In this document: piece after piece, positions 1 through 16,350 of the stretch
Layout of the letters: every line of letters starts with the position of its first letter
Position numbering within the stretch: the first letter of the stretch is position 1
IMG/VR virus record: IMGVR_UViG_3300002026_000032
Span: 1 to 16,350 of that record
Reading direction: 5' to 3' (one strand)
DNA: 16,350 nucleotides
From: a virus
Lineage: Duplodnaviria; Heunggongvirae; Uroviricota; Caudoviricetes
Position numbers and translations under genes: made by a program
The notes under the pieces: generated by a model
What the model was told of the DNA's origin: nothing
What the model saw: the letters and a program-made list of their open reading frames with translations, nothing else
Databases searched by the model: none

Positions 1-8
1 TATAAATA
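1..8 (+). promoter_or_regulatory. T4-type late promoter motif TATAAATA
   Basis: Exact match to the T4 gp55-dependent late consensus, 30 nt upstream of the likely start (39) of the giant ORF. An 8-mer this AT-rich can occur by chance, so the support is positional. Confidence 0.6.
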
Positions 9-38
9 GTTGTAAGTGAAACTAAAATGGAGTGTATA

Positions 39-3000
39 ATGGTTAAAAAGAAATCCATACTTGAATTCTTTAAGTCAACTGGATCATTGCTATTGGAAGC
101 TAAGAAGGCTAAACAGCCTGTAGTTAATAATTACGCAACAGCCGCAGCCAATGAAGTTATTGCATACGCCAAAGAGAAAGGTGTTGCAGTTACCGACTCA
201 TATGTAAATGATGTTGTTGATAGCTTCAAAGAAGATCTGTTTGATGGTAATCCATCCGGATTCGTTGCATCGGAAAAGAGAAAAATTGATGATGCATCCC
301 GTAGAGGTGATATCAATTATGTGCATGGTAATATTGTTAAAACCGATCTACGAGCTAAATCAAATCGGGTTAGTAATGATATTATAACTAAATCGACATC
401 TACCGGTGTTGATGCTAAAGGGAACCCGATTAACATAACCAGTCGTGGGTTGACTACAGATGGTAATACAGAGAAGAAGAATTCAATTACATCAGGAAAT
501 TTAAAACTTATTCTTGATAATGACATGGTTAAGACATTTATTCGGAATGTTGATGAGTTTGGATCCGATCAAATGATCAATGAACTTCCTGATAATCTCC
601 GTATAGTTAAAGATAATTTTGGTAAGATTTTTAAGATGGATAAAATAACTGGCGTTATCGAGTTTGTCAAAAAGTCTATGTCAAATAAAGCAAGCGACGA
701 TCAATGGGGTGAGGTATTAAAATCTGTAATTTGGAACACATTTGTCAAACCATTCAATGGTGCTGTGAAAAATGTGGTTGATGGTAATAAGATTAAACTG
801 AATGGTATCAAGATTGGTGACCAATTCGTGTCATATGACGAGATGGTTAAGAATCGCAACTCAATCACATCCGATCAGATGTTGGCTGGTAAATTAGACA
901 AATCAATCTCAATTGAAAATCAACTACTGAATATCACTTCACCAGTAGATGCTAAACAGTTTGTATTGTCATTGGATGGTAAAATTCCTGATATCATCGA
1001 TGCCATACAGAATTCGAAGAGTGCTTCATTCTATACCAAAGATACATTTAACTCAGCTATTTCCAAGCTTACGACTTTGCATAATGATAAGGAAGCTGGT
1101 AAACCAGTAGCCACCGAAGAAATTGCTGATGTAGTTTATCGATATGTCCACAAGACATCATCTGATTCAGTCACAACTATTGGTGACATTGATAAGAAGT
1201 TTGATAACAAGAAATATGATACAGAGTATTCTCGCTTGATGGATAAGGGTGATGTGAAATTACCCAGATCATTGGCTGACTCAATCATAACATTCATCAA
1301 CCGAGTTGTTAATGATAAGATGACATTGACTGTATCACAGGCAACATCCGGTCAGAATACATCAAAGATCATTGTCGACAGCAACGCAAAAGACAAGCTT
1401 CGTAAAATTCAGTTGTCATTGGGTGTCACCCTTCAGAAGATTAAAGGGAATAAAACCATACAAGAGTTTGATATGACAACCGATCGATATAATGAATTGG
1501 TTGAAGGTGTAACAGCTGTAGCTCTTTCAATTGCCACAATGAGTCGTAAGGATTCGGAAGAGAGTTATGAACCAAACATAGCATCCATGGTTCGTGCCGT
1601 ATTCACCAAGAAAAAGAATATCGATGTGTTCCTTGATAACATCGCTGTTCCTGGGTACATCCAATTCACAATAAATCAGGGTGAAGTTAAAGATCCAGCT
1701 GAGAATATGATCAAGATGTTTGTTCAAGCAAACAACACCGTATCACCATTGAAAGCTTCCGATAAAGACACAGCACAGCGTCGCAGCGAAAAGGAAGAAG
1801 CTCTTGATGGTATCAATACGCTAATTTCATCAATGTGTAAAACTGAAGCCATCATTGATGCGTATCCCGGTGAAGTGATTGATGCCGTAGAAGATCGTAA
1901 TGATATATCCAAACGGCTAAATGTTCTGGTTGATGGATGGATCATGAGTCGATTGAATTCAATTTATGAAAATACATTGAAGGTTGATGAAGATAATCCA
2001 AAAACAAGGGCACTCACTCAAGCTGACAAGAAGTTTCTGATCGCCGTTACTTCGGGGATCCTTGATACATCAGACGCGCAGGGTGGTATCCGCGTTTATA
2101 CAGGTGTTATCGTTCAACATCTTCAAGATCAATTCAGTGAAGCTTCAAAGAACAATAACACCAAAAATATGTCATTGTCAAAAGAATTAAGTGGTGATTA
2201 TGCTAAGGATAGTTTTTACATCCTTAAACAATATCAGAAGGTTTTAAATAGTGAAAAACCTGATGTTCAGTTGGGGGCTATTGTTGCTTTGTTGAGAAAC
2301 GACGAAGCGTGGAAACCAATCGCCGAAGATCTCATGTCGAAAGATAAGCAGTATCTGTGGTCTATGTATATAGACCAGGGTAAAGATCAAAATGAATCCA
2401 AGTATTATGCTATGGCAAAATATGTTCTAACCGATCTTCTGACACGACCAATGAAGGAACAGCCAGAGATTATCAGCAGAAACCGCGAACTCTTCTCGCT
2501 TGTTTCACGAAACACCAAGACAAAGGATGCTTCAGGAAAAACCATTGAAGTTCCTTCAGCCGATCGAATCGCCATTCAAAAAGCTATTCTTAATCGAGGA
2601 TTGTCTAAGTCTACCGATTCAGCAATTGTTGGGCTGTTTAAGAGGGATATAGCCAAGGATGGTGATAAGGCTGTAACATTCGCATTCCCTAATACAAGCT
2701 TGATGACAAACATGGCTATTGCCAGTTTCATTGTAAGTGGTGGTGATGATCAAATATTTGGTGGTACAAATAACGGAATGTCATATAAAGCGATTGATCA
2801 GTCAAAGAAAGACAAGTTCGTTGCTGGTGTGATAGCACATATCAATTCGGATAAATTTTCTGTGACAGATGATGTACTGGCATTAATTCCGGAAGATAAA
2901 ACAATCAATGATTTTGCAACCAGAAAGCAAGAGTATGTTAATTCTGTGAACAAGGTTGCAATGAAGTTGATGAATCATATCGACATCAAATCTCGGGAAT

Positions 3001-6000
3001 ATATGTATCTGATGGGTCGAAATGAATCTGGTGGAGTTTCATTCAATGTTTCCGATTTAAAAAATAGAGTCGTTGATTTCGTCATGATTGATATGTTGAA
3101 CATGAAAGAGAGTATCAACGCTCCAGCACCAATACATTTGACTAAATTGTATGATGCATTAGAGGGTGTTGTCAATGAGCTTGGTGTTAATCCGATCACC
3201 GTATATCAATTGATCAAATCAAAGATTAAGTTGTTTGACGAGGTTCAATCAATAAAGGTAAATAAGCCCGATGGAACTCCTAATGAGGTTACACCATTCA
3301 ATGATGTCATCAATGATGACAGCATTGCAAAACTTAAAGAGCTGCTACCAAACCTGAAGTTTGATAAAAACACCGGTGTGCTTGGTAAAGAGAAGAACTC
3401 TTTAGCACTTGCCAAGAAAGCTATTGCAATGGCAGATGAGATGTTCGGTATATCTGATCATCCAAACTACCATTCTCTCGGTGGAATTAGCGATCCCGAT
3501 ACAGACTTCGTTGGTATGGTTCGTGATAAGCTTCTCGCCAGTGATAACATTTATGCGGCTAAGAGAGCACTGAGTGTTGAACATAAATACAAAGTTATGG
3601 TTGGAGATCAGTTCATCGAAGGGATTGTTCCTTACAGAGAGTATGTTAAAATCGCCGATACTGATATCCTTGGTGATAAAACTGATATCAATTCATATAA
3701 CAAACTCGGTAAGTTCGAACGATTTGTTGTGGCATATATATGTGCTAAGCAGGTTAATGTACCTATTGAAAAGTTCATACCATCGAATCAATTCAACAAA
3801 CAATTGATTGAAGATGGTGTTGCTATTATTAGCCGTGGTGATTCGAAAGAAACTGAAAACTCAGATTCGTTTACTATGTCTCTTCGTGACTTGACAATGA
3901 AGGTTCAGTTGGTTCATAAGAACCTACGAGCACCAATTGATGTAACTGTAACTGGAATCGATGTTAATGACATTCGATTTGATAGAAGATGGCCTGGATA
4001 TCAAGCCATCGTTGATGCTGGATCTAAAACTGGATTACTTCAGGCTGCAGTTCATTCGTTCAATATGGGTATGCAAGATTTCGTTGGATCCAATACACTC
4101 AGTCAATTCCAGAAGAAGAATGGTGATGTGCTTCCATTCATCAAGAATTTTAAGACTCGAATTTTAAACTCTAGACAGTTTAAAGATGCATGGAATGGTG
4201 CACGGAAGATGATTGGAACTAACACCCCTGGTGTTATATTTGACTCCATAACCGATTTCGATACCAAACAAGAACTTAAAGTCTTAAATTCTATCGATGG
4301 TCAAGTCACTAAAGCTTTAACTCAGCTTAAGGACATCATCGAATCTGCGTATAAGGCCGATAAGAATGCCGCGGGTCAAACATTAAACATAACTGATGAT
4401 AAGGATACACTTCTTAAAGAAATCGATCAACAGCTTCAATTGGTTAATGTGAATATCAGAGATATAATGAATTTGGTTGAGAAAACAAAACTCACCATTG
4501 CCATCCCTTATTCATTGACTAGCATCGAATCTGTACTGAAAATCGATGGCAGCTATATTAACCGCGATTATATGACAAACATTGATGGAACTCCAATCAG
4601 TGATAAGACAATGAATCGTGTTCGATCTATCATGGCAAATGAATCCAAGATGAATTTTGTTAGAGAGGCTGAACGATATGCACACAGTTCGCGTGGAATC
4701 AAAGAGAATAAGCGTCTGCAGATATGGGAAAATGAATCCGACTTCAAGAAATTCTGGGAAGGGTTAACCCATACTCAGGGTGGTAAGGTTCATACTGAAT
4801 CATTGGATGTAAAGTCTATTGAAGATCTTGGTAAGTTTATACAGAATGCATTACCTACTATCAGATTCAATGACAAGTCTGGTGCGTTACAAAGTTTGAT
4901 AACCGCTGTATTTGATAGTGGTGTTGTTGGTGGGACTCATACGAAGCAATCAGTTGAGCGACAGGTTAAATATTATTCATCAATTAAAAAGGGTGAAGAT
5001 GCGACCATACCAATATTAAAGAGCAGAGGTCTTGAGTTTGATAATAAGTCTGCAAGATTCAATGATAAAGATAAAGATAATACTATAGAACATTTTCTTA
5101 ACAGAAAACTCGATAGGAATGACTATGCTAAGTTTATTTCAACTTACACATTCATAACACCAAATCTGTTTGATGATGAGAATCGTAGGATTGTTAACAT
5201 GGTTGCTAGATTAATTGATAAAGTTACGAGTAGCACCGAGCATGATCCGAAAGATGTTATATCATTGCGTAATGAGTTTCTGAATACGATAACTGGCGTT
5301 GCTGCTAGCATTGATAAGAAGCTGACATTTAAGAAAGTTCGTAATGAATCTGTGCTTGATGCAAAGCCATTCAATAAAGAACTTCGGGATTTAGTTAATA
5401 CATCAGCATTCATATCTATGTTTACTGATATTGGAATTGATCAAGCTACAGGTATTGACCTGATAAAGTTGCTATCAAATGCTGTTAATGGTGAGATGGT
5501 ACCTGATATCAATAAAAAATGTATGGATGCCTATACTGTTATGGGTCGAAATCTACAAAAGATTCAGGGTAAATTAGCTGGTACTGATACGACCATATCT
5601 CTAGCTAATGTCTTGAATGAGTTTATTAAAATCGATGTTATGGTTAAGGCCTTTGGTGATACCTTATTTGATGATGAAGTGGCTGATGAACAAGAATCTA
5701 AAGATGCCGGAAAATCTGATTATGAGAAACTTTCTGACATCAATAAAGGGACTAAAGATAGAACCAAAGATGTTGAGAAGATGGGTAAAGTTCAGTTCAA
5801 TAAAATGATACAGGAGTTGGCTGCAACTTTATCAGGTGTATCATCAGATGATCCGAATGAAAACATGAAATCCATCACCCATGGTGGTCGTTCAGCTGAG
5901 TCGTTGGTGAAGTTCAAATCGGTTTATAATGATGAAGTAGTTGCTAAAGTGAAAGAGTATACGGTTACTGGTAAGATGGCAACTCTGGCTGGTTCAGCTA

Positions 6001-6635
6001 AACCACTCCCGGTATCGAAGCTTCCGGAATTCCTTCATGCTCAAATGAGAAAGTTTGGGGATCCTGTTATAGCTGAACTCAAAACTTCGGTTGAATCAAG
6101 ACTTCTTGACGACCCTAAAGCTGCTAAAGAAATGACGGATAAACTCAATGCGATTGAAGGTTTCTTCAAATCTCATGGGCGAGGTGGGATGTCATTTGAT
6201 GCGGCGGATATGACACTTGTAAAAATGATCATGTCCGCAAACACAGCGATCGATGATCTCGATACTGACAGTATGGCTGATGATCTTAATAACTTTATCA
6301 ATGATGCTAAAGATATGGTCATCATTGAGACTCGATCATTACTGAAGTCACCGTTCCCTAATTTTACTGATGATGATAAACTGATGAAAATGATTGAAGG
6401 TATATTCATCAGATTCATTAAGGATAAGGCAAATCGTGAAGTTAAGAGCTGGTGGAAACAGTGGTCTGATAAAGGTGGGGCTAGAAGAATTGGCCAAGAG
6501 TTTGGGTCGGTTGTTGGTCGAGGTGGTCGACACATTGCAGATCTAAACCAGCCAATGAACCAGAGCACTCATTATGGACATCGGGCATCTCTTGTTGAAG
6601 CAGCGAATAGATATTTCAATAAATGCTTCAAGTAG
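39..6635 (+). CDS. Giant hypothetical protein (~2198 aa), probable virion-internal/ejection protein
   Basis: Uninterrupted ORF 27-6635. ATG39 is preferred because GGAG (29-32) sits 6 nt upstream. K/D/I/N-rich, no transmembrane segment or enzyme motif recognised. N-terminus MVKKKSILEFFKSTGSLLLEA. The CDS is near-certain; the function is inferred. Confidence 0.8.
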   Translation: MVKKKSILEFFKSTGSLLLEAKKAKQPVVNNYATAAANEVIAYAKEKGVAVTDSYVNDVVDSFKEDLFDGNPSGFVASEKRKIDDASRRGDINYVHGNIVKTDLRAKSNRVSNDIITKSTSTGVDAKGNPINITSRGLTTDGNTEKKNSITSGNLKLILDNDMVKTFIRNVDEFGSDQMINELPDNLRIVKDNFGKIFKMDKITGVIEFVKKSMSNKASDDQWGEVLKSVIWNTFVKPFNGAVKNVVDGNKIKLNGIKIGDQFVSYDEMVKNRNSITSDQMLAGKLDKSISIENQLLNITSPVDAKQFVLSLDGKIPDIIDAIQNSKSASFYTKDTFNSAISKLTTLHNDKEAGKPVATEEIADVVYRYVHKTSSDSVTTIGDIDKKFDNKKYDTEYSRLMDKGDVKLPRSLADSIITFINRVVNDKMTLTVSQATSGQNTSKIIVDSNAKDKLRKIQLSLGVTLQKIKGNKTIQEFDMTTDRYNELVEGVTAVALSIATMSRKDSEESYEPNIASMVRAVFTKKKNIDVFLDNIAVPGYIQFTINQGEVKDPAENMIKMFVQANNTVSPLKASDKDTAQRRSEKEEALDGINTLISSMCKTEAIIDAYPGEVIDAVEDRNDISKRLNVLVDGWIMSRLNSIYENTLKVDEDNPKTRALTQADKKFLIAVTSGILDTSDAQGGIRVYTGVIVQHLQDQFSEASKNNNTKNMSLSKELSGDYAKDSFYILKQYQKVLNSEKPDVQLGAIVALLRNDEAWKPIAEDLMSKDKQYLWSMYIDQGKDQNESKYYAMAKYVLTDLLTRPMKEQPEIISRNRELFSLVSRNTKTKDASGKTIEVPSADRIAIQKAILNRGLSKSTDSAIVGLFKRDIAKDGDKAVTFAFPNTSLMTNMAIASFIVSGGDDQIFGGTNNGMSYKAIDQSKKDKFVAGVIAHINSDKFSVTDDVLALIPEDKTINDFATRKQEYVNSVNKVAMKLMNHIDIKSREYMYLMGRNESGGVSFNVSDLKNRVVDFVMIDMLNMKESINAPAPIHLTKLYDALEGVVNELGVNPITVYQLIKSKIKLFDEVQSIKVNKPDGTPNEVTPFNDVINDDSIAKLKELLPNLKFDKNTGVLGKEKNSLALAKKAIAMADEMFGISDHPNYHSLGGISDPDTDFVGMVRDKLLASDNIYAAKRALSVEHKYKVMVGDQFIEGIVPYREYVKIADTDILGDKTDINSYNKLGKFERFVVAYICAKQVNVPIEKFIPSNQFNKQLIEDGVAIISRGDSKETENSDSFTMSLRDLTMKVQLVHKNLRAPIDVTVTGIDVNDIRFDRRWPGYQAIVDAGSKTGLLQAAVHSFNMGMQDFVGSNTLSQFQKKNGDVLPFIKNFKTRILNSRQFKDAWNGARKMIGTNTPGVIFDSITDFDTKQELKVLNSIDGQVTKALTQLKDIIESAYKADKNAAGQTLNITDDKDTLLKEIDQQLQLVNVNIRDIMNLVEKTKLTIAIPYSLTSIESVLKIDGSYINRDYMTNIDGTPISDKTMNRVRSIMANESKMNFVREAERYAHSSRGIKENKRLQIWENESDFKKFWEGLTHTQGGKVHTESLDVKSIEDLGKFIQNALPTIRFNDKSGALQSLITAVFDSGVVGGTHTKQSVERQVKYYSSIKKGEDATIPILKSRGLEFDNKSARFNDKDKDNTIEHFLNRKLDRNDYAKFISTYTFITPNLFDDENRRIVNMVARLIDKVTSSTEHDPKDVISLRNEFLNTITGVAASIDKKLTFKKVRNESVLDAKPFNKELRDLVNTSAFISMFTDIGIDQATGIDLIKLLSNAVNGEMVPDINKKCMDAYTVMGRNLQKIQGKLAGTDTTISLANVLNEFIKIDVMVKAFGDTLFDDEVADEQESKDAGKSDYEKLSDINKGTKDRTKDVEKMGKVQFNKMIQELAATLSGVSSDDPNENMKSITHGGRSAESLVKFKSVYNDEVVAKVKEYTVTGKMATLAGSAKPLPVSKLPEFLHAQMRKFGDPVIAELKTSVESRLLDDPKAAKEMTDKLNAIEGFFKSHGRGGMSFDAADMTLVKMIMSANTAIDDLDTDSMADDLNNFINDAKDMVIIETRSLLKSPFPNFTDDDKLMKMIEGIFIRFIKDKANREVKSWWKQWSDKGGARRIGQEFGSVVGRGGRHIADLNQPMNQSTHYGHRASLVEAANRYFNKCFK

Positions 6636-6641
6636 GCTGCT

Positions 6642-6649
6642 TATAAATG
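6642..6649 (+). promoter_or_regulatory. Late-promoter-like motif TATAAATG
   Basis: 7/8 match to TATAAATA in the 54-nt intergenic gap between the giant ORF and the 6690 ORF. Confidence 0.4.
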
Positions 6650-6677
6650 TGGGTGTGGATCAAACCACACTCACATT
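6646..6677 (+). other. 13-bp RNA stem-loop
   Basis: AATGTGGGTGTGG (6646-6658), loop ATCAAA, CCACACTCACATT (6665-6677). One G-U pair favours the + strand RNA. No U-tract; directly followed by SD GAAAGGTG. Confidence 0.8.
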
Positions 6678-6689
6678 GAAAGGTGAAAT

Positions 6690-7103
6690 ATGAATACCAT
6701 TTTAATTTTGTGCATTATCATTCTGCTAACAATTCTCCTGATACTGATCCCCATATCAATAGCCCTATACATCCAAGTTCGGATCGGTATGGATATCATA
6801 TTGATTCCCAAAAAGAATACCACATTCAATGACATTGATAAGATCCTATCAGATCATTTCGGTCATGCAATAGCACAACATCGATTGAACAAATCAGTGT
6901 CAACACTTGATACACTTCTGTTCGGTTTGTGTCAAGATAATAAGCTTCCATTTGATTTCGATTACATTTCAGATCTTATCATATCCGAAGTCAATAGAGT
7001 TGCGTTCACTCCTGAATTTAATCAGATGTATGATGATATGATTGAACATATAAATAAAAGTAACGATGGTGATAACTTTGATGATATTTGGGCTCGGAGG
7101 TAA
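6690..7103 (+). CDS. Membrane-anchored hypothetical protein (137 aa)
   Basis: SD AAGGTG upstream. Strongly hydrophobic N-terminus (ILILCIIILLTILLILIPISIALYI) followed by an acidic soluble domain. Confidence 0.8.
   Translation: MNTILILCIIILLTILLILIPISIALYIQVRIGMDIILIPKKNTTFNDIDKILSDHFGHAIAQHRLNKSVSTLDTLLFGLCQDNKLPFDFDYISDLIISEVNRVAFTPEFNQMYDDMIEHINKSNDGDNFDDIWARR
7049..7056 (+). promoter_or_regulatory. Internal T4-type late promoter motif TATAAATA
   Basis: Exact consensus near the 3' end of the 6690 ORF, about 50 nt upstream of ATG7106. Confidence 0.4.
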
Positions 7104-7105
7104 AG

Positions 7106-7345
7106 ATGCCAAGATTTAATTACAAGTGTAAAGATTGCGGTGCCGTCAAAGATTACATAACAGTTCCAGAGTCATGCCCAGCATGTGGGTGTTCGATTAT
7201 GACTAAGTCATTTTCCCCACCGAAAACTTTGGTAGTTGATGTTGAGGGTGGGTATGAATATAAACATGGAATTCGGGCTTGGCGGACCAGAGTGAACGAA
7301 CATGAGTACGCTCAGATTCTTCTTGGGGATAAGGATCCATACTAA
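7106..7345 (+). CDS. FmdB-family zinc-ribbon protein (79 aa)
   Basis: MPRFNYKCKDCG...CPACG matches the MPxYxYxCxxCG...CPxCG pattern. GGAGG (7096-7100) supports ATG7106 over the longer track start. Confidence 0.85.
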   Translation: MPRFNYKCKDCGAVKDYITVPESCPACGCSIMTKSFSPPKTLVVDVEGGYEYKHGIRAWRTRVNEHEYAQILLGDKDPY

Positions 7346-7671
7346 TGTCAATAGTCAAAGACATCAAATGTGAATACCCAGGGTGTGATATCATCTTCTT
7401 TGGTGATGGTCATAGAAAATATTGTGATGAACACAGCAAGTTGAAGTATCGCAAGAAAATTGAGAAAGCATCAGAAGATGATGCAAACATACTCATCCGA
7501 CATTTATCACATGAACTGTTTACGATCGGTCGAGCATGTGATTGCTGTGGAGTTGATTACAAGATCACTCTATATCCAAAACAGTTCATATACCCAAGGT
7601 ATTGTGAATTACATAGAAATAAATTTAAGAGACGGAATTATAAAGGAGAGTTACATGTTGGCAGTATTTAA
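7345..7671 (+). CDS. Twin zinc-finger protein (108 aa)
   Basis: TAATG overlap with the upstream stop. Two motifs, CEYPGC..KYCDEH and CDCC..RYCELH, each followed by a basic patch. Confidence 0.8.
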   Translation: MSIVKDIKCEYPGCDIIFFGDGHRKYCDEHSKLKYRKKIEKASEDDANILIRHLSHELFTIGRACDCCGVDYKITLYPKQFIYPRYCELHRNKFKRRNYKGELHVGSI

Positions 7672-8011
7672 TAAAACAAAAACCACAAGCAATGGTATTG
7701 AATCGTGGGTTGTCGTTCCAGGAATGGGTGAAGATTCATTATCAATTAAAGTCCATGCTGAGTCATTAAATCGAATCGATATCGAACTGATACCTAATCT
7801 GGAGTGCCAAGAGAGTGACAATCCAATTGCAAATGAAATCATTGATTTTATCATGAATGTTAGTAAAGGCAGCAAGTATACACACCGATCATTTACATAC
7901 AGTTCTGAACGAGATATCGATGTTAATGGCATCACTGCAGATCTGAAGAATGGTGTCATCAAATTTGATATCCCATTCAAGCCAATCAAAACAAAAACTA
8001 TTAAGCTGTAG
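7655..8011 (+). CDS. hsp20: Small heat-shock protein, Hsp20/alpha-crystallin family (118 aa)
   Basis: VVVPGMGEDSLSIKV and IDVNGITADLKNGVIKFDIP match the alpha-crystallin signatures (lPG..I.V and I.A...NGVL.I.lP). AAGGAG precedes ATG7655. Confidence 0.8.
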   Translation: MLAVFNKTKTTSNGIESWVVVPGMGEDSLSIKVHAESLNRIDIELIPNLECQESDNPIANEIIDFIMNVSKGSKYTHRSFTYSSERDIDVNGITADLKNGVIKFDIPFKPIKTKTIKL

Positions 8012-8018
8012 GTGATAA

Positions 8019-9455
8019 GTGGAACCAAATAAACAGCACCCCATTATGGCATATTCAAACATGTCATTGGAAAAGATTCATGAAAAGATATTAGATCTCA
8101 TTGATGAGTATCACAACAAATTTAAAAATGTTGATGGTAATAAATTAAGTGATCCGATCTTAACTACATTCGACAAGCTTGATGTTGATCAGTCAACTAG
8201 GGATAAAATTAGTAAATTACTTGGGTATGCATTGAATTCTAAACAAGAAGATGCTAAGTATTCAATCAAACAGATTATCACTAATGCCGCCCATTGGTAT
8301 ACCAGAAAGCTACCACCATCAATTGATATCAATGATATCATTGGTAGGGCACAGAGTAAAGCATTGAATAAATTTATTACATGGAAGCCTGGGGTAAGTT
8401 CAATAGCCACATATCTAAAACCAGCAATTAGATATGCATTTAATGAGGAAGTTCTGAAGGCTAACGGCCTCACCGGTATGAGTCCACAGCTCATGTCCAG
8501 ATATCTTACGGTGATGGCTATATCACAGAAGTCCGAATCAACTGACCCAACTGAGTTATTGACTATGAATAACGCATCGTTTGATGAGGTTAAACAATTT
8601 GTTGATGACAATTCGATTGATGATGTTGATGTCAGTACCAAGATTCGAAAAAGTAATTCAATCTATGATTACTCATTAACACCGAAGGATATCGAAGCCA
8701 TTGAACGGATTCGGAAGTTTATGAAAGAGAATCCAACACATGCTTCAAATCTAATTCATTCGTTAAAAACTGAATCAACATTTACATTAAGTTTGGATGC
8801 TGGTGTTTCTGATGAGTCGGGTGATACCCACTTGGATAATGTACCCAGTAGTGCTGATGATGTTCGTGTTATTGGTCGCGATGAGAGGTTTAATAGAATT
8901 CTGGATTCACTATTGACAGCTCACCCGAAATTGGATAAAGAGTTTCATATACAGGATAGAAATCTGAACGATTATATTAATGCCCATCTTGATATGAGTG
9001 ATGGGAAAAATATCGAAATGTCCTTGGCTAAATATGATATAACCCGGGGATCATTCGAACGATTTGAAGAGAAATATATCAAACGAAACCCATCAATCTC
9101 ATATCCAAAAGATGATAAAAAAGATGATACTAGGTCTCAAGATGAGGTGTATCAAGATCGAATGAAAGAGATCATGGATGAATTGAGTGATATGTATGAC
9201 CAAAGGGTAAAACGAAATCCTGATGGGAATCATCCTGCATTCACTGAGAATCTAGCAAAGGCTGTAGCTGCGATCAAACTAGGTAATTCATCTGACAGAA
9301 ATTTCATAAACAAAGTTTATAAAATGAATGGTGTTACCAAAGATGCTGTAATGGAACTGCTGACATATATCAATGATGAATCAGATCTTAACGAATCAGT
9401 CAATCATAATCGTGTTGGGTGGATTTCAGACTTACTTAGTAAGCTAAAAATGTAA
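8019..9455 (+). CDS. Divergent sigma-70-family RNA polymerase sigma factor with N- and C-terminal extensions (478 aa)
   Basis: Region 2-like IITNAAHWYTRKLPPSIDINDII...SIATYLKPAIRYAFNEEV (FliA-like), region 3-like DPTEL and TLSLDAGVSDESGDTHLDNV, degenerate region 4-like ITRGSFERFEEKYIK. GTG start with AGGTG upstream. Confidence 0.7.
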   Translation: MEPNKQHPIMAYSNMSLEKIHEKILDLIDEYHNKFKNVDGNKLSDPILTTFDKLDVDQSTRDKISKLLGYALNSKQEDAKYSIKQIITNAAHWYTRKLPPSIDINDIIGRAQSKALNKFITWKPGVSSIATYLKPAIRYAFNEEVLKANGLTGMSPQLMSRYLTVMAISQKSESTDPTELLTMNNASFDEVKQFVDDNSIDDVDVSTKIRKSNSIYDYSLTPKDIEAIERIRKFMKENPTHASNLIHSLKTESTFTLSLDAGVSDESGDTHLDNVPSSADDVRVIGRDERFNRILDSLLTAHPKLDKEFHIQDRNLNDYINAHLDMSDGKNIEMSLAKYDITRGSFERFEEKYIKRNPSISYPKDDKKDDTRSQDEVYQDRMKEIMDELSDMYDQRVKRNPDGNHPAFTENLAKAVAAIKLGNSSDRNFINKVYKMNGVTKDAVMELLTYINDESDLNESVNHNRVGWISDLLSKLKM

Positions 9456-9458
9456 AAA

Positions 9459-9489
9459 TGATGGGCATGGAATAAATCCATGCCCATTA
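9459..9489 (-). terminator. Intrinsic terminator between convergent blocks
   Basis: Perfect 11-bp core ATGGGCATGGA / TCCATGCCCAT with a 5-nt loop. On the minus strand it is followed by CA-TTTTT. It may also act on + transcripts. Confidence 0.8.
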
Positions 9490-9519
9490 CACATCGCGGT
9501 TGAGGTCTCAAGTCTCGTT

Positions 9520-10299
9520 TTAACGCTGTTTTCCCCATGTGGTATACCAAACTGGGTCTACATTCATTACCACGGCAGCTGATGCAATCTTTGACATGTA
9601 TACATGATAATCCGCGGTTGATGTTGACAGAGCATCAAGGTTCCCTGAGTCTGAGTTCATATAACTTTGGATCGTGACCGCAGACAAAGCTGACAGCAAC
9701 AGGGTCGGTGACATGGGTATGGTAAATGTAGGATCAACTGATGTGGTTGGTGTTGCATCAAAAATCTTAGACAGTTCGGTCAGTTGATTGATGAATGACA
9801 TATAAGCCATACGGTGCTGTGTTGCGATGTTTGCTGTATCCATTACGATACGATACTGGAAAATTGCAGCACGAATCAATCTTCTGAATGGAATCAGAAG
9901 GTCATACGCATAATCATATTCACCGGTACCCATCAAGTTTGGATCAATATCAGTGATCAAAGTTCGCAGTCCGGTAGTCGCAGTTTCAACAGCTTCAACG
10001 GACCGGTTGTCGGTTGTAATTGACATTGTGAACTGATCACACCCGTCGGCATTAACTGTAACAATCAGAGCACTGTTGGCAATCATACTGGCTGCTGGGA
10101 TTGTTAATTTATAGATGCCGGGAAAGTTTACATTCTCCGTAACAGTCAGTCCAGTGATGGTTGATTCGGTAGTTGATGTGTACCGGATACATGCAGTTGT
10201 AATTCCAGTGGCACCAACTTTGATTGCGGGTCGAGTTAGTGTATCAACAAGTGTGAATAACACCACACAATCTTGATTTGGGGTTCTTAAAAATTCCAC
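9520..10299 (-). CDS. Thr-rich hypothetical protein, possibly a virion structural protein (259 aa)
   Basis: AAGGAG-N6-GTG at 10299 is preferred to the track start, which overlaps the ATPase gene. Beta-strand-like N-half (FPGIYKLTIPAA) and helical C-half. Confidence 0.7.
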   Translation of the reverse strand: MEFLRTPNQDCVVLFTLVDTLTRPAIKVGATGITTACIRYTSTTESTITGLTVTENVNFPGIYKLTIPAASMIANSALIVTVNADGCDQFTMSITTDNRSVEAVETATTGLRTLITDIDPNLMGTGEYDYAYDLLIPFRRLIRAAIFQYRIVMDTANIATQHRMAYMSFINQLTELSKIFDATPTTSVDPTFTIPMSPTLLLSALSAVTIQSYMNSDSGNLDALSTSTADYHVYMSKIASAAVVMNVDPVWYTTWGKQR

Positions 10300-10327
10300 G
10301 GATATCTCCTTATTTATTTTCTTAGAA

Positions 10328-11080
10328 TCATGTGTACTTAACAACCAGATCTTCCCAATTATCATCATTCATTGCAAAGTTGATCCCTTTAACAAGTGTC
10401 CGGAGATCAACGACTTTGTCTGAGCCATGATTCAGTTGAATCAGATTTAATACCTCTTCCTTAACATTTATAGGAGCTTGTGGATATATGCATTTGAGAA
10501 TGGCTCGCATGTGTTTAAACATGTCAGCCCGGCTAAGTGATACATCAATATGGGTGCATCGAGAAACAACAGCCGAATCGATCTCTGATATGCGTTTATT
10601 GCTAATGAATATCAGAGTTTTCGTGTAGGTGAATGAATCTGGAATCTGATCGTTACTCAATAGTTTCAATTCCAATTGATGATTTCTTGTTCCATTGGCT
10701 GAGATCAGAACATCAGATGGATATGTACTTCTTGAGTTCCAACACACCGGTGAGACTCGGGTGTCCATGACCGATTTCAGAATGTCAATTCCAACTTTAT
10801 CCTTAAGGATTTTATCACAGTCATCGAAGATCATCACTTCGATCATGTCATTCATTTGAGCTCGATACAGTTCGATGTAGAACTCTTTGATTGTTGAATA
10901 GCCGGATACAATTTTATAGCCGGATTTTGATACAAGCCGGTTAACCACAGTCTCAACTGAATGAGACTTACCCTGGCCGGGAAGACCAGTAACAATCAAT
11001 TTTTTGATGTTACTGGTCACAGCCATAGTGGTTAGTCGGTATAAGTCATCGAACACTTTTGGGTATTCTGAGTATACCAT
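10328..11080 (-). CDS. Stand-alone AAA+ family ATPase (250 aa)
   Basis: Walker A GLPGQGKS, Walker B VMIFDDCD, sensor-1 IFISN, Arg finger SAVVSRC. GAGG SD before ATG11080. Confidence 0.85.
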   Translation of the reverse strand: MVYSEYPKVFDDLYRLTTMAVTSNIKKLIVTGLPGQGKSHSVETVVNRLVSKSGYKIVSGYSTIKEFYIELYRAQMNDMIEVMIFDDCDKILKDKVGIDILKSVMDTRVSPVCWNSRSTYPSDVLISANGTRNHQLELKLLSNDQIPDSFTYTKTLIFISNKRISEIDSAVVSRCTHIDVSLSRADMFKHMRAILKCIYPQAPINVKEEVLNLIQLNHGSDKVVDLRTLVKGINFAMNDDNWEDLVVKYT

Positions 11081-11090
11081 ACTATCCTCA

Positions 11091-11417
11091 CTAAGATAAT
11101 TTAATTGTGAACTCCATACACATGGGGTCTGATGGTTGGTCTGGGTATGCAAGCTCGAATGTGAATCGCTCATCATTCTCGTTTGTGTTTGGAAACACTT
11201 TTGCTTTCATCATCTCAACCTGAAGACTGAGATCTGATATGAGTCCCTGAGCTCCATACTTAGGTCTGTTGTTGAACTTCAGAATCAACCGATTCATCAT
11301 ACGAACACCACCGGTCTCTGGGAATACAACCAGATCGCACATGAACTGGTTAATACGCTTCTTAATCATTTCTAATGTCGTTGAGTCGAAATTGTCATGC
11401 ATCAATTTAATAACCAT
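11091..11417 (-). CDS. Hypothetical protein (108 aa)
   Basis: AAGGAGG SD, fits the gene tiling. Weak resemblance to a tail-sheath C-terminal domain (see findings). Confidence 0.75.
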   Translation of the reverse strand: MVIKLMHDNFDSTTLEMIKKRINQFMCDLVVFPETGGVRMMNRLILKFNNRPKYGAQGLISDLSLQVEMMKAKVFPNTNENDERFTFELAYPDQPSDPMCMEFTIKLS

Positions 11418-11426
11418 ACATCCTCC

Positions 11427-12104
11427 TTAGGATTTTAATTTACTGAACCATTTCAAAAAATCTTTCGCAGTGCCTGTCATGTATTTGACATTCTTTCCTA
11501 TCTCTGATACCCTCCATTTGTTTGTGGATGGATAGAAGTCAATACTCGGTTTACCATTCATTCTAAGTAAAGCAACATGCGCTTCAGCTTTATACACGAA
11601 TGGTAACCCAGAAGATTTCAGATCTGCAATATTTCTAACTTCACTCTTGGATAATAATGATTCTGCGTTGACCTTCGGTTTTCCTGACTTATCGAACAGT
11701 TTGTAAACGAATTCACCCGGGGGATACACACCACCGCTATGGATGACTGGTAATAAAGCCCACTCGACATTACTGAGATTAATGTTCTTTTTAATCTTGG
11801 ATAGAGTAATAAAGTTATCGTCAATCGCGATGACTTGAAACAATGCTCCACCAACCTTGGATCTTGTGTCAGCGATCATTAGATACCAACCTTCAACTGG
11901 AACCAACAGATGATCATTATAACCATCCGTTGATTCATTGAATATTGATGGGGGAAACTTCACATCTTCAGTCAGCCAGAAATTGGTTGTATAATGTGCC
12001 GTTGATTCATGATTTGGGTATGAGCACCAAATGGCTGATACCCCAGTTTTTGTTATTGTTAATGGCAAAATAATCAAATCACGATTGTAATTAAATTCAA
12101 ACAT
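11427..12104 (-). CDS. Hypothetical protein (225 aa)
   Basis: Fits the tiling. The C-terminal ~60 aa (LKSSGLPF..AHV..IDFYPSTNKW..GTAKDFLKWF) reads like a small, separate phage domain. Confidence 0.75.
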   Translation of the reverse strand: MFEFNYNRDLIILPLTITKTGVSAIWCSYPNHESTAHYTTNFWLTEDVKFPPSIFNESTDGYNDHLLVPVEGWYLMIADTRSKVGGALFQVIAIDDNFITLSKIKKNINLSNVEWALLPVIHSGGVYPPGEFVYKLFDKSGKPKVNAESLLSKSEVRNIADLKSSGLPFVYKAEAHVALLRMNGKPSIDFYPSTNKWRVSEIGKNVKYMTGTAKDFLKWFSKLKS

Positions 12105-12111
12105 AACAAAC

Positions 12112-12840
12112 TCACTTTTTAATAATTGTTAACACAGCTCCACCCCCGATACCAACTTTAATGCCTTGATCAAACGGATCATAAATAATAGCGGCAGTCA
12201 GTCCGGGCCTCAATACAATCCTTGGTTTTGGTTTATCGAGCTTATCCCAAGATGACACATTCGTCACATGGAACCTCGAATCAGTTGTCGACACCGATGT
12301 CATTTGATATGGTGAAAATATATTCTTACGGGTATGAACAACAGTGACACCAAGATCAATATCAGTTGTTACCTTTATGGAATCCAGCTTAACAGTAATT
12401 ACCGAATCCTTTGTCGATGCTTTAACCGGTATTGAAATGATCGATGTAACCGCACTATCTGAAATCGTATCGACAACTGTCGTATCGATATTAATTCCGG
12501 TCATGACAATCGGTTTTAATACATAGATGGTGTCAAATTTGATAATGGTGTGGGTGCCATCAATTACCGACCCACCCTTACCTTTCGCTTTCATCAGCTG
12601 ATCATACAGATCCTTATCCAATTTCTTCAACTCTTCAATAGATGATACCAGTTGTCGACGCTCGGAAATCATGACTCCGTTCTTGTTCTTGTACACATCG
12701 ACCGAATGCGATAGAGCAAGAATGTTCTTGTCGATTGCTGAGATTGTCTTCTTTGATTCACTCAAGTTGGATGAAAGAATGAATATGACAATCATACAAA
12801 ATATGATTGCCATTAATAAATACACGCTACTACTCTTCAT
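12112..12840 (-). CDS. Membrane-anchored coiled-coil protein, spanin-like (242 aa)
   Basis: N-terminal TM helix (YLLMAIIFCMIVIFILS), coiled coil YKNKNG..IEELKKLDKDLYDQL, beta-rich middle, C-terminal Gly-rich amphipathic strands. GGAGG SD and ATGA overlap. Confidence 0.65.
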   Translation of the reverse strand: MKSSSVYLLMAIIFCMIVIFILSSNLSESKKTISAIDKNILALSHSVDVYKNKNGVMISERRQLVSSIEELKKLDKDLYDQLMKAKGKGGSVIDGTHTIIKFDTIYVLKPIVMTGINIDTTVVDTISDSAVTSIISIPVKASTKDSVITVKLDSIKVTTDIDLGVTVVHTRKNIFSPYQMTSVSTTDSRFHVTNVSSWDKLDKPKPRIVLRPGLTAAIIYDPFDQGIKVGIGGGAVLTIIKK

Positions 12841-13049
12841 GAGTCCTCCAATTCAATAAATAGTTTTTCGATTAGAAACTCAGCTAATTCTGCAGCCTCT
12901 CTATAATTTAGATTGATAACATCTGTGGGAAATTCAGAGTCTTCGTTAACTTGCTCCAACCTGAAATTTCTATTGTCACAATCCCAATTCACCGATGCTC
13001 TATCATCACCTTGAATATCAAGACTTTTCATAGCATATACACCCATCAT
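12837..13049 (-). CDS. Small acidic hypothetical protein (~70 aa)
   Basis: ATGA overlaps at both ends. Start is ambiguous (13049, 13046 or 13031). Confidence 0.7.
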   Translation of the reverse strand: MMGVYAMKSLDIQGDDRASVNWDCDNRNFRLEQVNEDSEFPTDVINLNYREAAELAEFLIEKLFIELEDS

Positions 13050-13384
13050 ACACCCCCATTGACCCATACTAAGTTACCACCACATCGTTTCAAAACAATT
13101 GATGTTTCTGAGTAATCACCATCATATGGGTTGCTAACATTCCGTAAGCATGATGTGTCACATAACGATATAGTTACACCCTTTATATCATGTCTCCACC
13201 GTTTCATAATCAGGTTAACTGTATCACCACTCTTCATACTTTTAATTGATTCCGATGGAACTTCTTGGTTATACACATAAAATCGTTTAATTGATGTGTG
13301 GTTAACAGAAATCCATGATCCAACGAATTTGTCTGCGTTTGATAATGGAATTTGATCGATAACAGGTTTCAATGTAATATTCAT
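13046..13384 (-). CDS. Hypothetical protein (112 aa)
   Basis: AAGGAG-N6-ATG at 13384. Confidence 0.75.
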   Translation of the reverse strand: MNITLKPVIDQIPLSNADKFVGSWISVNHTSIKRFYVYNQEVPSESIKSMKSGDTVNLIMKRWRHDIKGVTISLCDTSCLRNVSNPYDGDYSETSIVLKRCGGNLVWVNGGV

Positions 13385-13394
13385 GATAAACTCC

Positions 13395-14063
13395 TTAGTG
13401 TTTAAGAACTGCACTCTTTAATTTCTTTGGGCAGCGGAGACATGCAGCGCCACAACCAACCCCGGGGCATAATACCAATCCTCTATCTTTGGCTTCTTGT
13501 TCGGTCTTAACAACAACGAAGTCTTGTTCACTGATCATCACTGCAGCCCCATACGCTTCAAGTCGGTTGACTAAGCTGGTTGATGATTTTGAATATGTAT
13601 ATGTAATAATCTTGTTGGATTTAAATTTCTCAGTCATCCCAACAAAGAAGTCAATGTTCCAATCAGCTAAGTCAGAAGACTCATTAAGTCTAACATATTT
13701 GATTGCATGCTTATGACAGTGCTTGGTGATGGTTTCGGCAACCTGTCGACCAAACTCAATTGACTCCCAATCACCAAGCTTATGAACTTCTTTAAGAATG
13801 AATTCGTTTCGATCACGGGATTTTTTAACTGACGGGTATAGCTTCTCAGCTTTACAAGCATAACACATGGGGAATCCAGATGCTTTGTAGTTATCCACAT
13901 GGAAAGGACAGATTGAAGCATTTGGACAATCGAGGCCGGTGCCGGCTGATATGATCGGCACTGCAACCTTGGTATTACCGGTCGATGCATAGAATGTACC
14001 AAAAATGGTTTCAAAGTGGAAATAGTTGCGTGTCGATTTTACTGAAAGGATTACTGATTTCAT
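13395..14063 (-). CDS. GP88-like Cys-rich protein, possible Fe-S/radical-SAM-like (222 aa)
   Basis: CPNASICP..MCYACK, YVRLNESSD, YTYSK, C-terminal CPGVGCGAACLRC and terminal His resemble the phage gene product 88 family. AAGGAG SD. Confidence 0.65.
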   Translation of the reverse strand: MKSVILSVKSTRNYFHFETIFGTFYASTGNTKVAVPIISAGTGLDCPNASICPFHVDNYKASGFPMCYACKAEKLYPSVKKSRDRNEFILKEVHKLGDWESIEFGRQVAETITKHCHKHAIKYVRLNESSDLADWNIDFFVGMTEKFKSNKIITYTYSKSSTSLVNRLEAYGAAVMISEQDFVVVKTEQEAKDRGLVLCPGVGCGAACLRCPKKLKSAVLKH

Positions 14064-14093
14064 TTGAATCTCCTTCTAAGGATTTAATAATTT

Positions 14094-14122
14094 AAAATAT
14101 GATGTGATGTGATGAGAGTCAA
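14094..14122 (-). promoter_or_regulatory. Sigma-70-type promoter
   Basis: TTGACT (14122-14117), 17-nt spacer, TATTTT (14099-14094), in the intergenic gap upstream of the SD and ATG14063. Confidence 0.7.
14100..14114. repeat. Perfect pentanucleotide tandem repeat (TGATG)3, read as (CATCA)3 on the minus strand
   Basis: Read directly from the sequence; occupies 15 of the 17 nt of the promoter spacer. Confidence 0.9.
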
Positions 14123-14123
14123 A

Positions 14124-14405
14124 TCAAATACCAGATGCTGAGTTAAATATTTCACGAACGGAAACCTCAGTTATATCTTTATCAAACATCTGCCTATTCA
14201 ACGGAATCGGTTCGATTGATATCTTTAACTCGGAAGCTCGGAGAGACTTAACTCGTTTGTCTATGTCTATGTCTGACACCTCCGGAAACTCCGGATCGTC
14301 TTTTGTACAATGAAATTCCTTGGATAAGGCTCTATAGATCAACTCAGCCACTGTTGACTTCCCACTTGCGACGCTGCCTAATACAATTACTTTTACTGAT
14401 TTCAT
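14124..14405 (-). CDS. Small P-loop-containing protein (93 aa)
   Basis: VIVLGSVASGKSTVAELI is an NMP-kinase-like Walker A. Too short for a full kinase. ATGA overlap with the upstream gene. Confidence 0.75.
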   Translation of the reverse strand: MKSVKVIVLGSVASGKSTVAELIYRALSKEFHCTKDDPEFPEVSDIDIDKRVKSLRASELKISIEPIPLNRQMFDKDITEVSVREIFNSASGI

Positions 14406-14818
14406 TTCATCACCCTAACTTTTATGCTTGTTAAATTATGTCGAATCAGTTCGATAAACTGATCGGTTATCTTATTCACACGATACACTGAATATGAACC
14501 ATTATGTCTGGGTGCTCGGTTAGTAACCCGTATGAGAGTTCCATCGGGGCAAGACTCTAAACTCTCGTTTGCAAGTTTAACTAACTGATTATACACCCAA
14601 CCACCTTTATATGTTTTAACCTCCTTCCATGATTCTGGTTTTGATTTATGCCCATACTTGTTATTGCCGGTACCACGGATAGTATTTAGATAGCTGTGAC
14701 CATCGAATGTGGATGATAGAACAACACCCCACTTATCGTGTGGACCATCAACAAAGAATGGTTCACCAGTTACACATCGAGTATCGGTTCTTAACCGATA
14801 AGTATTATCCATTGGCAT
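14402..14818 (-). CDS. Hypothetical protein (138 aa)
   Basis: GGAGG-N5-ATG at 14818; fits the tiling. Confidence 0.75.
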   Translation of the reverse strand: MPMDNTYRLRTDTRCVTGEPFFVDGPHDKWGVVLSSTFDGHSYLNTIRGTGNNKYGHKSKPESWKEVKTYKGGWVYNQLVKLANESLESCPDGTLIRVTNRAPRHNGSYSVYRVNKITDQFIELIRHNLTSIKVRVMK

Positions 14819-15005
14819 CATCACCTCCAGGTTTAGATCTCAATACATTTCTGACGTGATCATTGAAGCAAGATGTGCATAGAATCTTATCTCCATGAAC
14901 TTCCGTTGAATAGAAATCGTTATGTGGTGTACATGTCGATACCGATCCACATACACCACATTGACACTCTTTGTAGCACCGGTCTTCATTCTTAGTTGTA
15001 ACCAT
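14805..15005 (-). CDS. Small zinc-finger protein (66 aa)
   Basis: CQCGVCG...CTPHNDFY...LCTSCF Cys pattern. ATG15005 lies just after the upstream stop. Confidence 0.75.
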   Translation of the reverse strand: MVTTKNEDRCYKECQCGVCGSVSTCTPHNDFYSTEVHGDKILCTSCFNDHVRNVLRSKPGGDDANG

Positions 15006-15013
15006 ATCAACAC

Positions 15014-15814
15014 TCACTTTGTTACAGGTTTCCACAGACGATCAATTGTTACAGCCCTGCGAGCTATCGGATCTGATTTACGAGCAATCACAGGTTTCAT
15101 TTGAGCAACCCAATTTGAAACACTGGTGATCTTCCAATCGATCTTACCACGGCTGCTATGAACTATGGCACCAACGGCTGGGATCATCAGTTCCTTAACT
15201 TTCTTGTGGGTCATTATCGGACCTTCACCACTCACACATTCAAATATCGAACTCCCATCTTCATTGAGTATTAGTTGATACATTGTGCCACGCTTCTTAT
15301 GTAGCCAATAGGATCCGATAGGAAACTCACCAGATGAAGTCATATGCATTTTTATGACCGTGGTTATCTTGTTTATTTTTCCGAGTGAATCAATTTCATC
15401 TCTGACGAACTCGAATGGTTCGATCGTTGATGATTCATCATATACCGGTTTGACCGATCGTTCATAATCCCATCCAATTCTGTTATACAGAACTCTCATA
15501 TCATCCGCTTCAATGGTTGATGTCTGGGCTAATGCCTCCTTCCACCAGTTTGACCCTAACGCCCATTCATCGCCATTGATCGTCACACCTGAGAATCGAA
15601 CGCAGAATCGATTATACCACTGCATGAGATCTCGACATTCTGATGGAGTTAGATCTTCAAACCGGTTGAACATCTTATAGCTGAGGATTATGGTATCCCG
15701 AATCAGATCGAACTGGCGGGTGGCTGGAGTTAAAGGATTTCTAAACTCCCGATGATAACGCTCAAGCAATTCACTCAGAGCATTCTTCATTTTCTTGTAA
15801 TTTATATTTGACAT
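15014..15814 (-). CDS. Hypothetical protein (266 aa)
   Basis: AAGGAG-N5-ATG. Helical N-half; the C-half has two short beta-rich segments (GSYWLHKKRGTMYQL and VGAIVHSSRGKIDWKITSV). Confidence 0.75.
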   Translation of the reverse strand: MSNINYKKMKNALSELLERYHREFRNPLTPATRQFDLIRDTIILSYKMFNRFEDLTPSECRDLMQWYNRFCVRFSGVTINGDEWALGSNWWKEALAQTSTIEADDMRVLYNRIGWDYERSVKPVYDESSTIEPFEFVRDEIDSLGKINKITTVIKMHMTSSGEFPIGSYWLHKKRGTMYQLILNEDGSSIFECVSGEGPIMTHKKVKELMIPAVGAIVHSSRGKIDWKITSVSNWVAQMKPVIARKSDPIARRAVTIDRLWKPVTK

Positions 15815-15823
15815 GATAACTCC

Positions 15824-16350
15824 TTACAGTATAACCTTTTGTCTGACCGAACCATAATCAATCTGAGCATTCTGCTTTTTAAGAAGATATCTGAGTCTGG
15901 GTACATATGATTCCCGGCAGATGTAAGTCGATCCCAATTTGACATACATGACACCTTCAAGTTTGAAGTCGTTAACCACGACCTCATTTTCCACACCTTG
16001 TTTTTCACAGGTTGATTCCAGTGGGAGAAAGTCGACTAACAGATCAAGTTCGGAATCATTCAAAGGTGTACCATCTTCATAGTGATACACCGAGTCCGAA
16101 ATACATCCCTTGTTGAACTTATAAGTTCTGATGTAAAATTGTTTCTCATCCTTATCCGACTGGAGAATCACTTTAGATCCATCATAAAAATGACGACCTC
16201 TTGGTGCTTCTGATTTGAAGTCTGCCGTAACGCCTTCTTTGAGTCGACGGTTGTTAACCATGGATTCATAACTGTAATTACCGAATCCATACCCAGATCT
16301 GGTTGATGTTTTGAATATTGTTCGACCCTTAAACATATCATCGAAGGTGA
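15824..16350 (-). CDS. Phage hypothetical protein, 5' end probably outside the window
   Basis: The frame stays open from ATG16336 to the window edge (..TFDDMFKGR). The MVNN..KEG..F / FLP..Q..EV..KLE pattern looks like a recurring phage family, not named with confidence. Confidence 0.7.
   Translation of the reverse strand, partial: TFDDMFKGRTIFKTSTRSGYGFGNYSYESMVNNRRLKEGVTADFKSEAPRGRHFYDGSKVILQSDKDEKQFYIRTYKFNKGCISDSVYHYEDGTPLNDSELDLLVDFLPLESTCEKQGVENEVVVNDFKLEGVMYVKLGSTYICRESYVPRLRYLLKKQNAQIDYGSVRQKVIL

Follow-up and report, generated by a model that had tools for sequence, protein, structure and literature searches.

T4-like phages are thought to use the host sigma-70 for their early genes and gp55 for their late genes. 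To our knowledge, the phage sigmas described so far belong to the early or middle genes. The propeptides, or capsid targeting sequences, of T4 comprise 10–19 residues, and Alt is processed at each terminus (PMC9026906). Jumbo phages of the gp23 type are reported to encode minimal sigma factors as well as fuller ones (PMC7824862). Here we analyse a stretch of 16,350 nucleotides (hereafter the window), corresponding to positions 1 to 16,350 of the IMG/VR virus record IMGVR_UViG_3300002026_000032. Bases 1–9455 of the window hold a run of six open reading frames (ORFs) on the + strand, among them a giant orphan of 2198 amino acids (aa) and a 478-aa sigma-like protein. An earlier sequence-only reading had treated this run as one operon, with both large products packaged and injected together. 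Our analysis leans, with modest confidence, towards a late accessory segment composed of two adjacent but separate units, one for a putative virion-associated giant and one for a divergent sigma factor that would act inside the cell. The features that bear on this are:

1–8, + strand: TATAAATA, late-promoter-like motif of the giant gene, overlapping the TAA stop (bases 3–5) of a 683-aa ORF
39–6635, + strand: giant orphan ORF, 2198 aa, ~246 kDa, with ATG at 39 after GGAG (29–32)
6643–6677, + strand: TATAAATG (7/8 of the late motif) at 6643–6650 and a 13-bp hairpin at 6646–6677 (dG -22.7 kcal/mol, z -5.9, no U-run)
7049–7056, + strand: perfect TATAAATA, 49 nt upstream of the ATG of a zinc-ribbon gene
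8019–9455, + strand: 478-aa sigma-like protein, with GTG start after AGGTGA

Profile searches matched the Gp23 major capsid protein (E 8e-65), the T4 portal protein gp20 (E 8e-71) and a gp21-type prohead protease (Peptidase_S77, E 7e-33), and a T4-type large terminase, sheath and baseplate wedge genes were also found. The capsid protein shares <30% identity with those of cultured phages, the nearest being T4-like cyanophages, and a scan of IMG/VR with it revealed no relatives. Only one sequencing run contains the DNA, a metagenome of a microbial mat; no RNA run is listed. From its genes the phage is classified as a deep-branching, uncultured T4-like jumbo myovirus, with a predicted genome of ~220 kb, from a microbial mat. 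In such a deep, uncultured lineage orphan genes are therefore expected. A canonical gp55-like gene of 215 aa (PHROG 234, E 9e-10) is found on an adjoining contig, G001, flanked by genes that we take to be gp46- and gp47-like by size and position only. A 578-aa HNH/homing-endonuclease-like ORF (PHROG 559, E 6e-110) is located between the major capsid and head-tail adaptor genes (G000 113185–114921).

The motif TATAAATA occurs 28 times in the 166 kb obtained by joining the record to G001, compared to ~22 copies expected by composition. Nearly half of the copies (13/28) are located 16–62 nt upstream of an ORF start on the same strand, where ~0.85 would be expected; about 3% of all positions lie in that range, giving a binomial estimate of <1e-12. 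The genes behind well-placed copies include those for the sheath, the scaffold, the head-tail adaptor, a tail fibre, the giant and the zinc ribbon, and near-perfect copies (CTATAAAT plus one variable base) are found ahead of other structural genes. Many copies are followed by a GT-rich, GTAAG-like stretch. The placement before gene starts and the presence of a gp55 homologue identify TATAAATA as the predicted T4-type late promoter of this phage. The copy in front of the giant gene, together with its GTAAG extension, matches those ahead of the scaffold and head-tail adaptor genes.

Host-type promoters of the form TTGACT-N18-TATATT are present at four intergenic sites. Near-identical promoter-like regions, TTGACTCT followed by an 18-nt spacer and TATATT, are located at G000 43410–43460 and 45757–45807, each followed by the same 20-nt stretch with a small hairpin. 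A k-mer search for a third promoter class returned only ribosome-binding sites, TATAAAT and AT-rich words.

Within the block, late motifs are present at 1–8, 6643–6650 and 7049–7056. The block therefore comprises at least two, and probably three, predicted late units, and the single operon of the sequence-only reading gives way: it holds three or more late-type motifs and a strong internal hairpin (6646–6677). The TATAAATG/hairpin element sits between the giant gene and a gene for a 137-aa protein, and the TATAAATA at 7049–7056 is likely the late promoter of a unit encoding the zinc ribbon, a zinc finger, an Hsp20-like protein and the sigma-like protein.

The orphan status of the giant, already noted in the sequence-only reading, was borne out in every resource searched. 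No family or homologue was found in Pfam, PHROGs, NCBIfam or the PDB sequences. Word-index searches with the whole protein and with residues 1500–2202, searches of the ESM Atlas with both halves, tblastn against 50,697 phage records and pattern scans of IMG/VR likewise yielded no homologue or match. The sequence showed no internal repeats and no P-loop, metal-protease or polymerase signature. Three D-x-D-x-D strings occur without supporting context. The protein is predicted to be soluble, without a transmembrane segment. An in-frame ATG at 27 would give 2202 aa, whereas the call of the Joint Genome Institute (JGI) uses the start at 39.

The rule that gp21 cuts after L-x-E, invoked in the sequence-only reading, can be applied here, as the phage is T4-like and encodes the Peptidase_S77 protease described above. 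The motifs it had singled out, ILEF, LLEA and LVEA in the giant and LNES in the sigma-like protein, are also where it had placed them. Their abundance carries no signal: at a rate of 0.0107 (L/I)xE per residue, 23.5 are expected in the giant and 5.1 in the sigma-like protein, and 21 and 3 were found. Position is more informative. An (L/I)xE occurs within the first 28 residues of 8/12 head-module ORFs (67%) versus 49/194 others (p 0.004), and in 4/6 ORFs of the orphan block. In five consecutive ORFs, the giant being the last, an [LI]xE[AGS] is found at residues 8–30; the same N-terminal signature is present in three upstream orphans (593, 235 and 683 aa). Between the genes for the protease and the capsid protein lies an ORF, presumably a gp22-like scaffold judging from its position, that has 15 (L/I)xE sites in 296 aa, mostly L-x-E followed by S or A. 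A leader tag shared by the proteins of the block was considered and rejected; only the 235-aa and 683-aa proteins are weakly alike.

The giant itself begins MVKKKSILE/FFKSTGSLLLE/A and ends SLVE/AANRYFNKCFK, the slashes marking the possible sites. The N-terminal sites are ILE at residue 9 and LLE/A at residue 20 (from Met5), so that a propeptide of 9 or 20 residues would be removed if they are cut. Because of the late promoter of head-gene type and the propeptide-like N-terminus, the balance tips slightly towards the giant being a virion protein, probably internal to the head. Its gene would be transcribed late, from a gp55-type promoter shared with head genes. The product would most likely be loaded into the prohead via its N-terminal peptide, with the gp21-type protease then cutting it back, perhaps at each end as in T4 Alt.

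Several points weigh against this placement. The giant is without a homologue in any library, and its virion location rests on the type of promoter and on an N-terminal motif of low specificity (25% background). About 25% of ordinary ORFs carry an (L/I)xE in either terminal 28 residues, and the leader of the giant is not similar to those of its neighbours. The motif TATAAATA is found equally well placed before nrdD, a metallophosphoesterase gene and a deoxynucleoside monophosphate (dNMP) kinase pair (G000 71870–74662 and 64685–65506, and joined coordinate -7967 on G001). A late-type promoter therefore neither marks a virion gene nor implies packaging.

Comparison of two independent, near-identical assemblies revealed 21 differences in 16.3 kb, of which 19 fall within 115 nt, in codons 1655–1693 of the giant gene:

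5002–5115, + strand: variable patch in the giant gene, holding 19/21 of the differences between assemblies

The patch contains 8 non-synonymous and 6 synonymous changes and one in-frame indel of 6 nt. As the indel is in-frame, the reading frame of the giant gene is maintained; one short patch is variable.

Such a local variable patch with an in-frame indel would also suit a surface or host-contact region, and the giant might, rather than being head cargo, be exposed on the outside of the virion as a fibre or decoration, or else be a late protein that does not enter the virion, for example a large factor for anti-defence or host takeover in the cell. We regard this as fairly unlikely. It fits the position of the gene outside the head and tail modules, the absence of a leader common to the neighbours and the occurrence of late motifs beyond virion genes. 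Against it stand the promoter of head-gene type and the N-terminal L-x-E/A at residue 20, which resembles the sites of the capsid protein and the neighbouring orphans. Furthermore, neither immunoglobulin (Ig), beta-helix, collagen or other fibre-type repeats nor internal repeats were found in the giant.

The 478-aa protein very probably has a sigma-70-family fold, judging from structural models. In the ESM Atlas its feature score against sigma-70 clusters is 0.95, and every structural neighbour of the Atlas model is a sigma factor. When 1.8 billion representatives were scanned exhaustively with HMMER, one homologue was returned, of 472 aa (33% identical, E 6e-46). Adding this sequence raised the AlphaFold confidence (pLDDT, predicted local distance difference test) from 36 for the single sequence, which was unusable, to 58 for the two-sequence alignment. 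With this model, sigma chains filled 50/50 top rows of VIA-align (Z 8–9.3). Residues 13–149 align to domain 2 of WhiG (Z 9.0, root-mean-square deviation (rmsd) 3.3 A over 109 residues), and the same residues to domain 2 of Taq sigma-A (Z 8.6) and Mtb sigma-A, the range being Z 8.6–9.0 and rmsd 3.3–4.8 A. Residues 12–252 align to sigma domains 2 and 3 in canonical order. In a Foldseek search of the PDB about two thirds of the top 50 were sigma chains, the best being WhiG (E 0.076), and a structure search of AFDB Swiss-Prot gave only weak FliA rows. Using hhalign against an alignment of E. coli FliA, RpoD, RpoS and RpoH, the sole match covered regions 2.1–2.3 in the expected register (E 0.07). 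In regions 2.2/2.3 the homologue reads DLIGEG...ISTF and the window copy DIIGRA...IATY, compared to DLIQEG in sigma-70. The modelled architecture is as follows:

residues 13–149: region 1.2 and sigma domain 2
to residue ~252: sigma domain 3
residues 253–286: acidic linker, followed by an insertion of ~110 residues
residues 410–452: three-helix C-terminal domain, followed by a 25-residue tail

Evidence of another kind weighs against the assignment. The Pfam sigma profile for region 2 (PF04542) did not match even at E 10, using the whole protein, its parts, the homologue or the six-frame translated genome. The region 4 profiles (PF04545/PF08281) matched neither the 478-aa protein nor its parts or homologue, and searches of NCBIfam and of the PDB sequences with the protein gave no sigma match. 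A PDB profile search with it gave only a chance match to a ribosomal protein, tblastn against phages with either sigma-like copy gave nothing, and pairwise alignments of the protein with single E. coli sigmas were not significant. The core-binding motif of the window copy is degenerate (DIIGRA), and the model behind the assignment derives from two sequences and has a mean pLDDT of 58. By chance alone, a helical model can attain Z values like these. The label sigma-70-like of the sequence-only reading thus stands by fold (VIA-align, Foldseek and ESM Atlas) but not by Pfam.

The profile PHROG 234, annotated as late sigma, was matched weakly by residues 375–452 (profile positions 7–83, E 0.0017). 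That the 478-aa protein is gp55 itself was considered and rejected: the match is confined to the C-terminal part, and a separate 215-aa ORF matches better. Since this gp55-like gene is already present on G001, the 478-aa protein would, on its modelled fold, be a second sigma in addition to the canonical gp55.

The single relative of the locus is a 4.2-kb JGI contig (L014) with the same gene order as the window. Its sigma-like gene (667–2085) encodes a protein 31% identical to that of window 8019–9455, whereas the flanking genes are 54–84% identical as proteins and 73–75% as DNA. The DNA similarity is lost exactly across the sigma-like gene. The gene is a divergence hot spot, evolving several times faster than its neighbours. 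The best-kept stretches of the pair are residues 133–175, the acidic linker and a C-terminal motif. From the alignment we take residues 133–175 to be regions 2.3–2.4, through which genuine sigmas touch the -10 element. No further relatives emerged when metagenome and viral contigs were scanned with patterns from the sigma pair and the conserved zinc-finger pair, and exact-protein look-ups returned only the 4.2-kb contig again.

In the reading that we prefer, the sigma-like gene would be co-transcribed with the zinc-ribbon, zinc-finger and Hsp20-like genes from its own late-type promoter. The protein would most likely act inside the infected cell, where it may bind the core of the host RNA polymerase and redirect it to a class of phage promoters.

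The sequence-only reading had instead combined the two proteins: both the giant and the sigma-like protein would be late products that enter the prohead, undergo trimming by the gp21-type protease and are injected with the DNA, the sigma redirecting host RNA polymerase at the start of the next infection. We consider this improbable. The conservation of its motifs in the sigma-like homologue is split. At the C-terminus LNES is kept as LTES, within the following feature:

9387–9404, + strand: L-N-E-S-V-N, residues 457–462 of the sigma-like protein, in the C-terminal tail; L-T-E-S-V-N in the homologue

At the N-terminus, neither I-H-E nor I-D-E is conserved, and both map within the region 1.2/2 domain of the model; because of this the N-terminal sites are, on the model, not a propeptide, which speaks against packaging. 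The tail is of more interest, as L-x-E-S-V-N is kept in a homologue that is only 31–33% identical. The pattern [LI]xESVN occurs twice in 50,201 residues of the phage, the other copy being the first predicted cleavage site of the scaffold. The conserved L-x-E-S-V-N would be the only genuine pointer to recognition by the protease, and a post hoc one.

A sigma-like factor that enters the prohead by way of this tail, is cut at L-x-E/S-V-N by the gp21-type protease in the manner of the scaffold, and is injected along with the DNA and perhaps the giant, can be envisaged, but we think it improbable. In its favour, a late-type promoter is present at 7049 with no evident sigma-70-type promoter on the + strand, and the late genes are already served by gp55. 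Furthermore, the gene is a divergence hot spot (31% versus 54–84% for the flanks), as are the T4 internal proteins (PMC3012670), and the C-terminus of T4 Alt is also trimmed (PMC9026906). On the other hand, the background for a C-terminal L-x-E is 25%, late-type motifs precede metabolic genes too, and the presence of host-type TTGACT-N18-TATATT promoters means that an injected sigma is not needed. No solid published precedent was found; the sigma of phage SU10 was seen as one mass-spectrometry peptide, amid many non-structural proteins (PMC4281155).

It is equally hard to credit that the 478-aa protein is a sigma-fold mimic or decoy, binding core or competing with host sigma for a late shut-off of host or earlier phage transcription: the degenerate region 2.2 motif of the window copy (DIIGRA), the absence of Pfam hits for regions 2 and 4 at a cut-off as loose as E 10, the large insertion and extra tail, the late promoter context and the rapid divergence would all suit it, but the domain order 2-3-linker-4 is retained, residues 133–175, which we read as regions 2.3–2.4, are the best conserved, and the homologue retains DLIGEG.

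The remaining genes of the + strand run and the hairpin at its end are:

6690–7103, + strand: 137-aa protein whose N-terminus contains a strongly hydrophobic transmembrane segment; matches no family
7106–7345, + strand: 79-aa FmdB-type zinc ribbon; profile matches under curated cut-offs; GGAGG ribosome-binding site
7345–7671, + strand: 108-aa zinc finger, double Cys/His; 84% identical in the relative L014
7655–8011, + strand: 118-aa Hsp20/alpha-crystallin-like protein; weak match (E 0.0045), under cut-off
9459–9489: 13-bp hairpin between convergent genes; dG -21 kcal/mol, z -4.6; U-run on the - strand only

The small genes are separated by gaps of 2 and 7 nt or overlap by 1 and 17 nt. The co-directional, tightly coupled arrangement that the sequence-only reading described was thus found again among the small genes, as was its terminal hairpin, of 13 bp at 9459–9489 with a U-run on the - strand only. 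This hairpin divides the + strand block from convergent genes on the - strand. The 137-aa membrane protein directly follows the late-type motif and internal hairpin, and may have a membrane or lysis-type role late in infection. The - strand encodes an AAA-type ATPase (PHROG 1250, E 2e-27; window 10328–11080), whose counterpart in the relative is 84% identical. It also encodes a GP88-like protein rich in Cys (window 13395–14063); ahead of this gene stands TTGACTCT, with a CATCA repeat in the spacer. An Rfam scan of the window gave no match.

The source record is a linear IMG/VR fragment of 122,927 b, rated ~55% complete. The adjoining IMG/VR contig G001 (43,158 b) has an end that matches window bases 1–91 exactly, a 91-b overlap (window 1–91 / L007 9975–10065 / L015 1–151). 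The two are alike in G+C (39.5% for G001 versus 39.7%) and have a tetranucleotide correlation of 0.98–0.99. A separate JGI assembly from another sample contains a 27.6-kb contig, 99.9% identical, that crosses the junction by 112 b. The exact overlap, the matching composition and the spanning independent contig show that the join is real. Window base 1 is an assembly break at a contig edge, and the genome runs on upstream; joined, the pieces give a phage fragment of 166 kb or more.

Upstream of the window, on the joined contig, lies a co-directional block of ~30 kb. It contains the dNMP kinase and gp55-like genes, orphan ORFs of, in order, 326, 593, 235, 355 and 683 aa, and some genes that we take to be replication genes by size and order alone. 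The statement that the block opens with TATAAATA accordingly falls, as the window starts at the edge of a contig, genes of the same direction are found further upstream and the motif shares bases with the stop codon of the 683-aa ORF. Four tRNA genes (three of Met-CAT type, one Tyr) are found in a 2.4-kb ORF-free stretch of G001 (L012 16110–17701). Direct repeats with a unit of ~27 nt, GGGTGTTCTTTTACATTCGGGCTGATG, are located at G000 ~37900–38006 in a divergent intergenic region of 573 nt, and are a candidate origin or regulatory array.

Compared with known systems, the giant most resembles the internal head proteins and Alt of T4. Like these it belongs to a T4-like phage with a gp21-type protease, its gene has a predicted late promoter, and its N-terminus holds what would be a short peptide closed by (L/I)-x-E, with a small residue following. 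As in Alt there is a possible second site near the C-terminus, and neighbouring orphans carry the same N-terminal signature. Unlike IPI-III and Alt, it shows no sequence similarity to these proteins, the leaders have no conserved tag, and the giant is 3–25x larger and known from sequence alone. In size class (~250 kDa), and as plausible cargo delivered with the DNA, it is comparable to DarB of P1, the virion RNA polymerase of N4 and gp66 of crAss-like phages, but no methyltransferase, helicase, T7-like or double-psi-barrel polymerase domain was detected in it. DarB is 2255 aa long. The giant orphan would add a 246-kDa late protein, without known fold or domain, to the few very large candidates for delivery with DNA.

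The 478-aa protein shares with T4 gp55 the weak PHROG 234 match (E 0.0017), but this is confined to its C-terminal part, and the canonical 215-aa gp55-like gene is located elsewhere, on G001. Were the sigma indeed packaged, it would become the first injected sigma factor to be well supported, and the phage would bring its own promoter-recognition subunit to the host RNA polymerase before any phage gene expression. The protein differs from full-length phage sigmas in falling under every Pfam threshold, in its ~110-residue insertion and conserved C-terminal tail, in its late-type promoter context and in having one homologue among 1.8 billion representatives. It is comparable to the full-length sigmas of gp23-type (group 2) jumbo phages, to SPO1 gp28 and to phiEco32 gp36 in that a sigma-70-family factor would retarget the host core, and to those of the gp23-type jumbo phages in its coexistence with a gp55-type minimal sigma (PMC7824862). 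A second, divergent full-length sigma-fold protein, fast-evolving and in a late context, would suggest a host-specific layer of polymerase control in this deep T4-like lineage.

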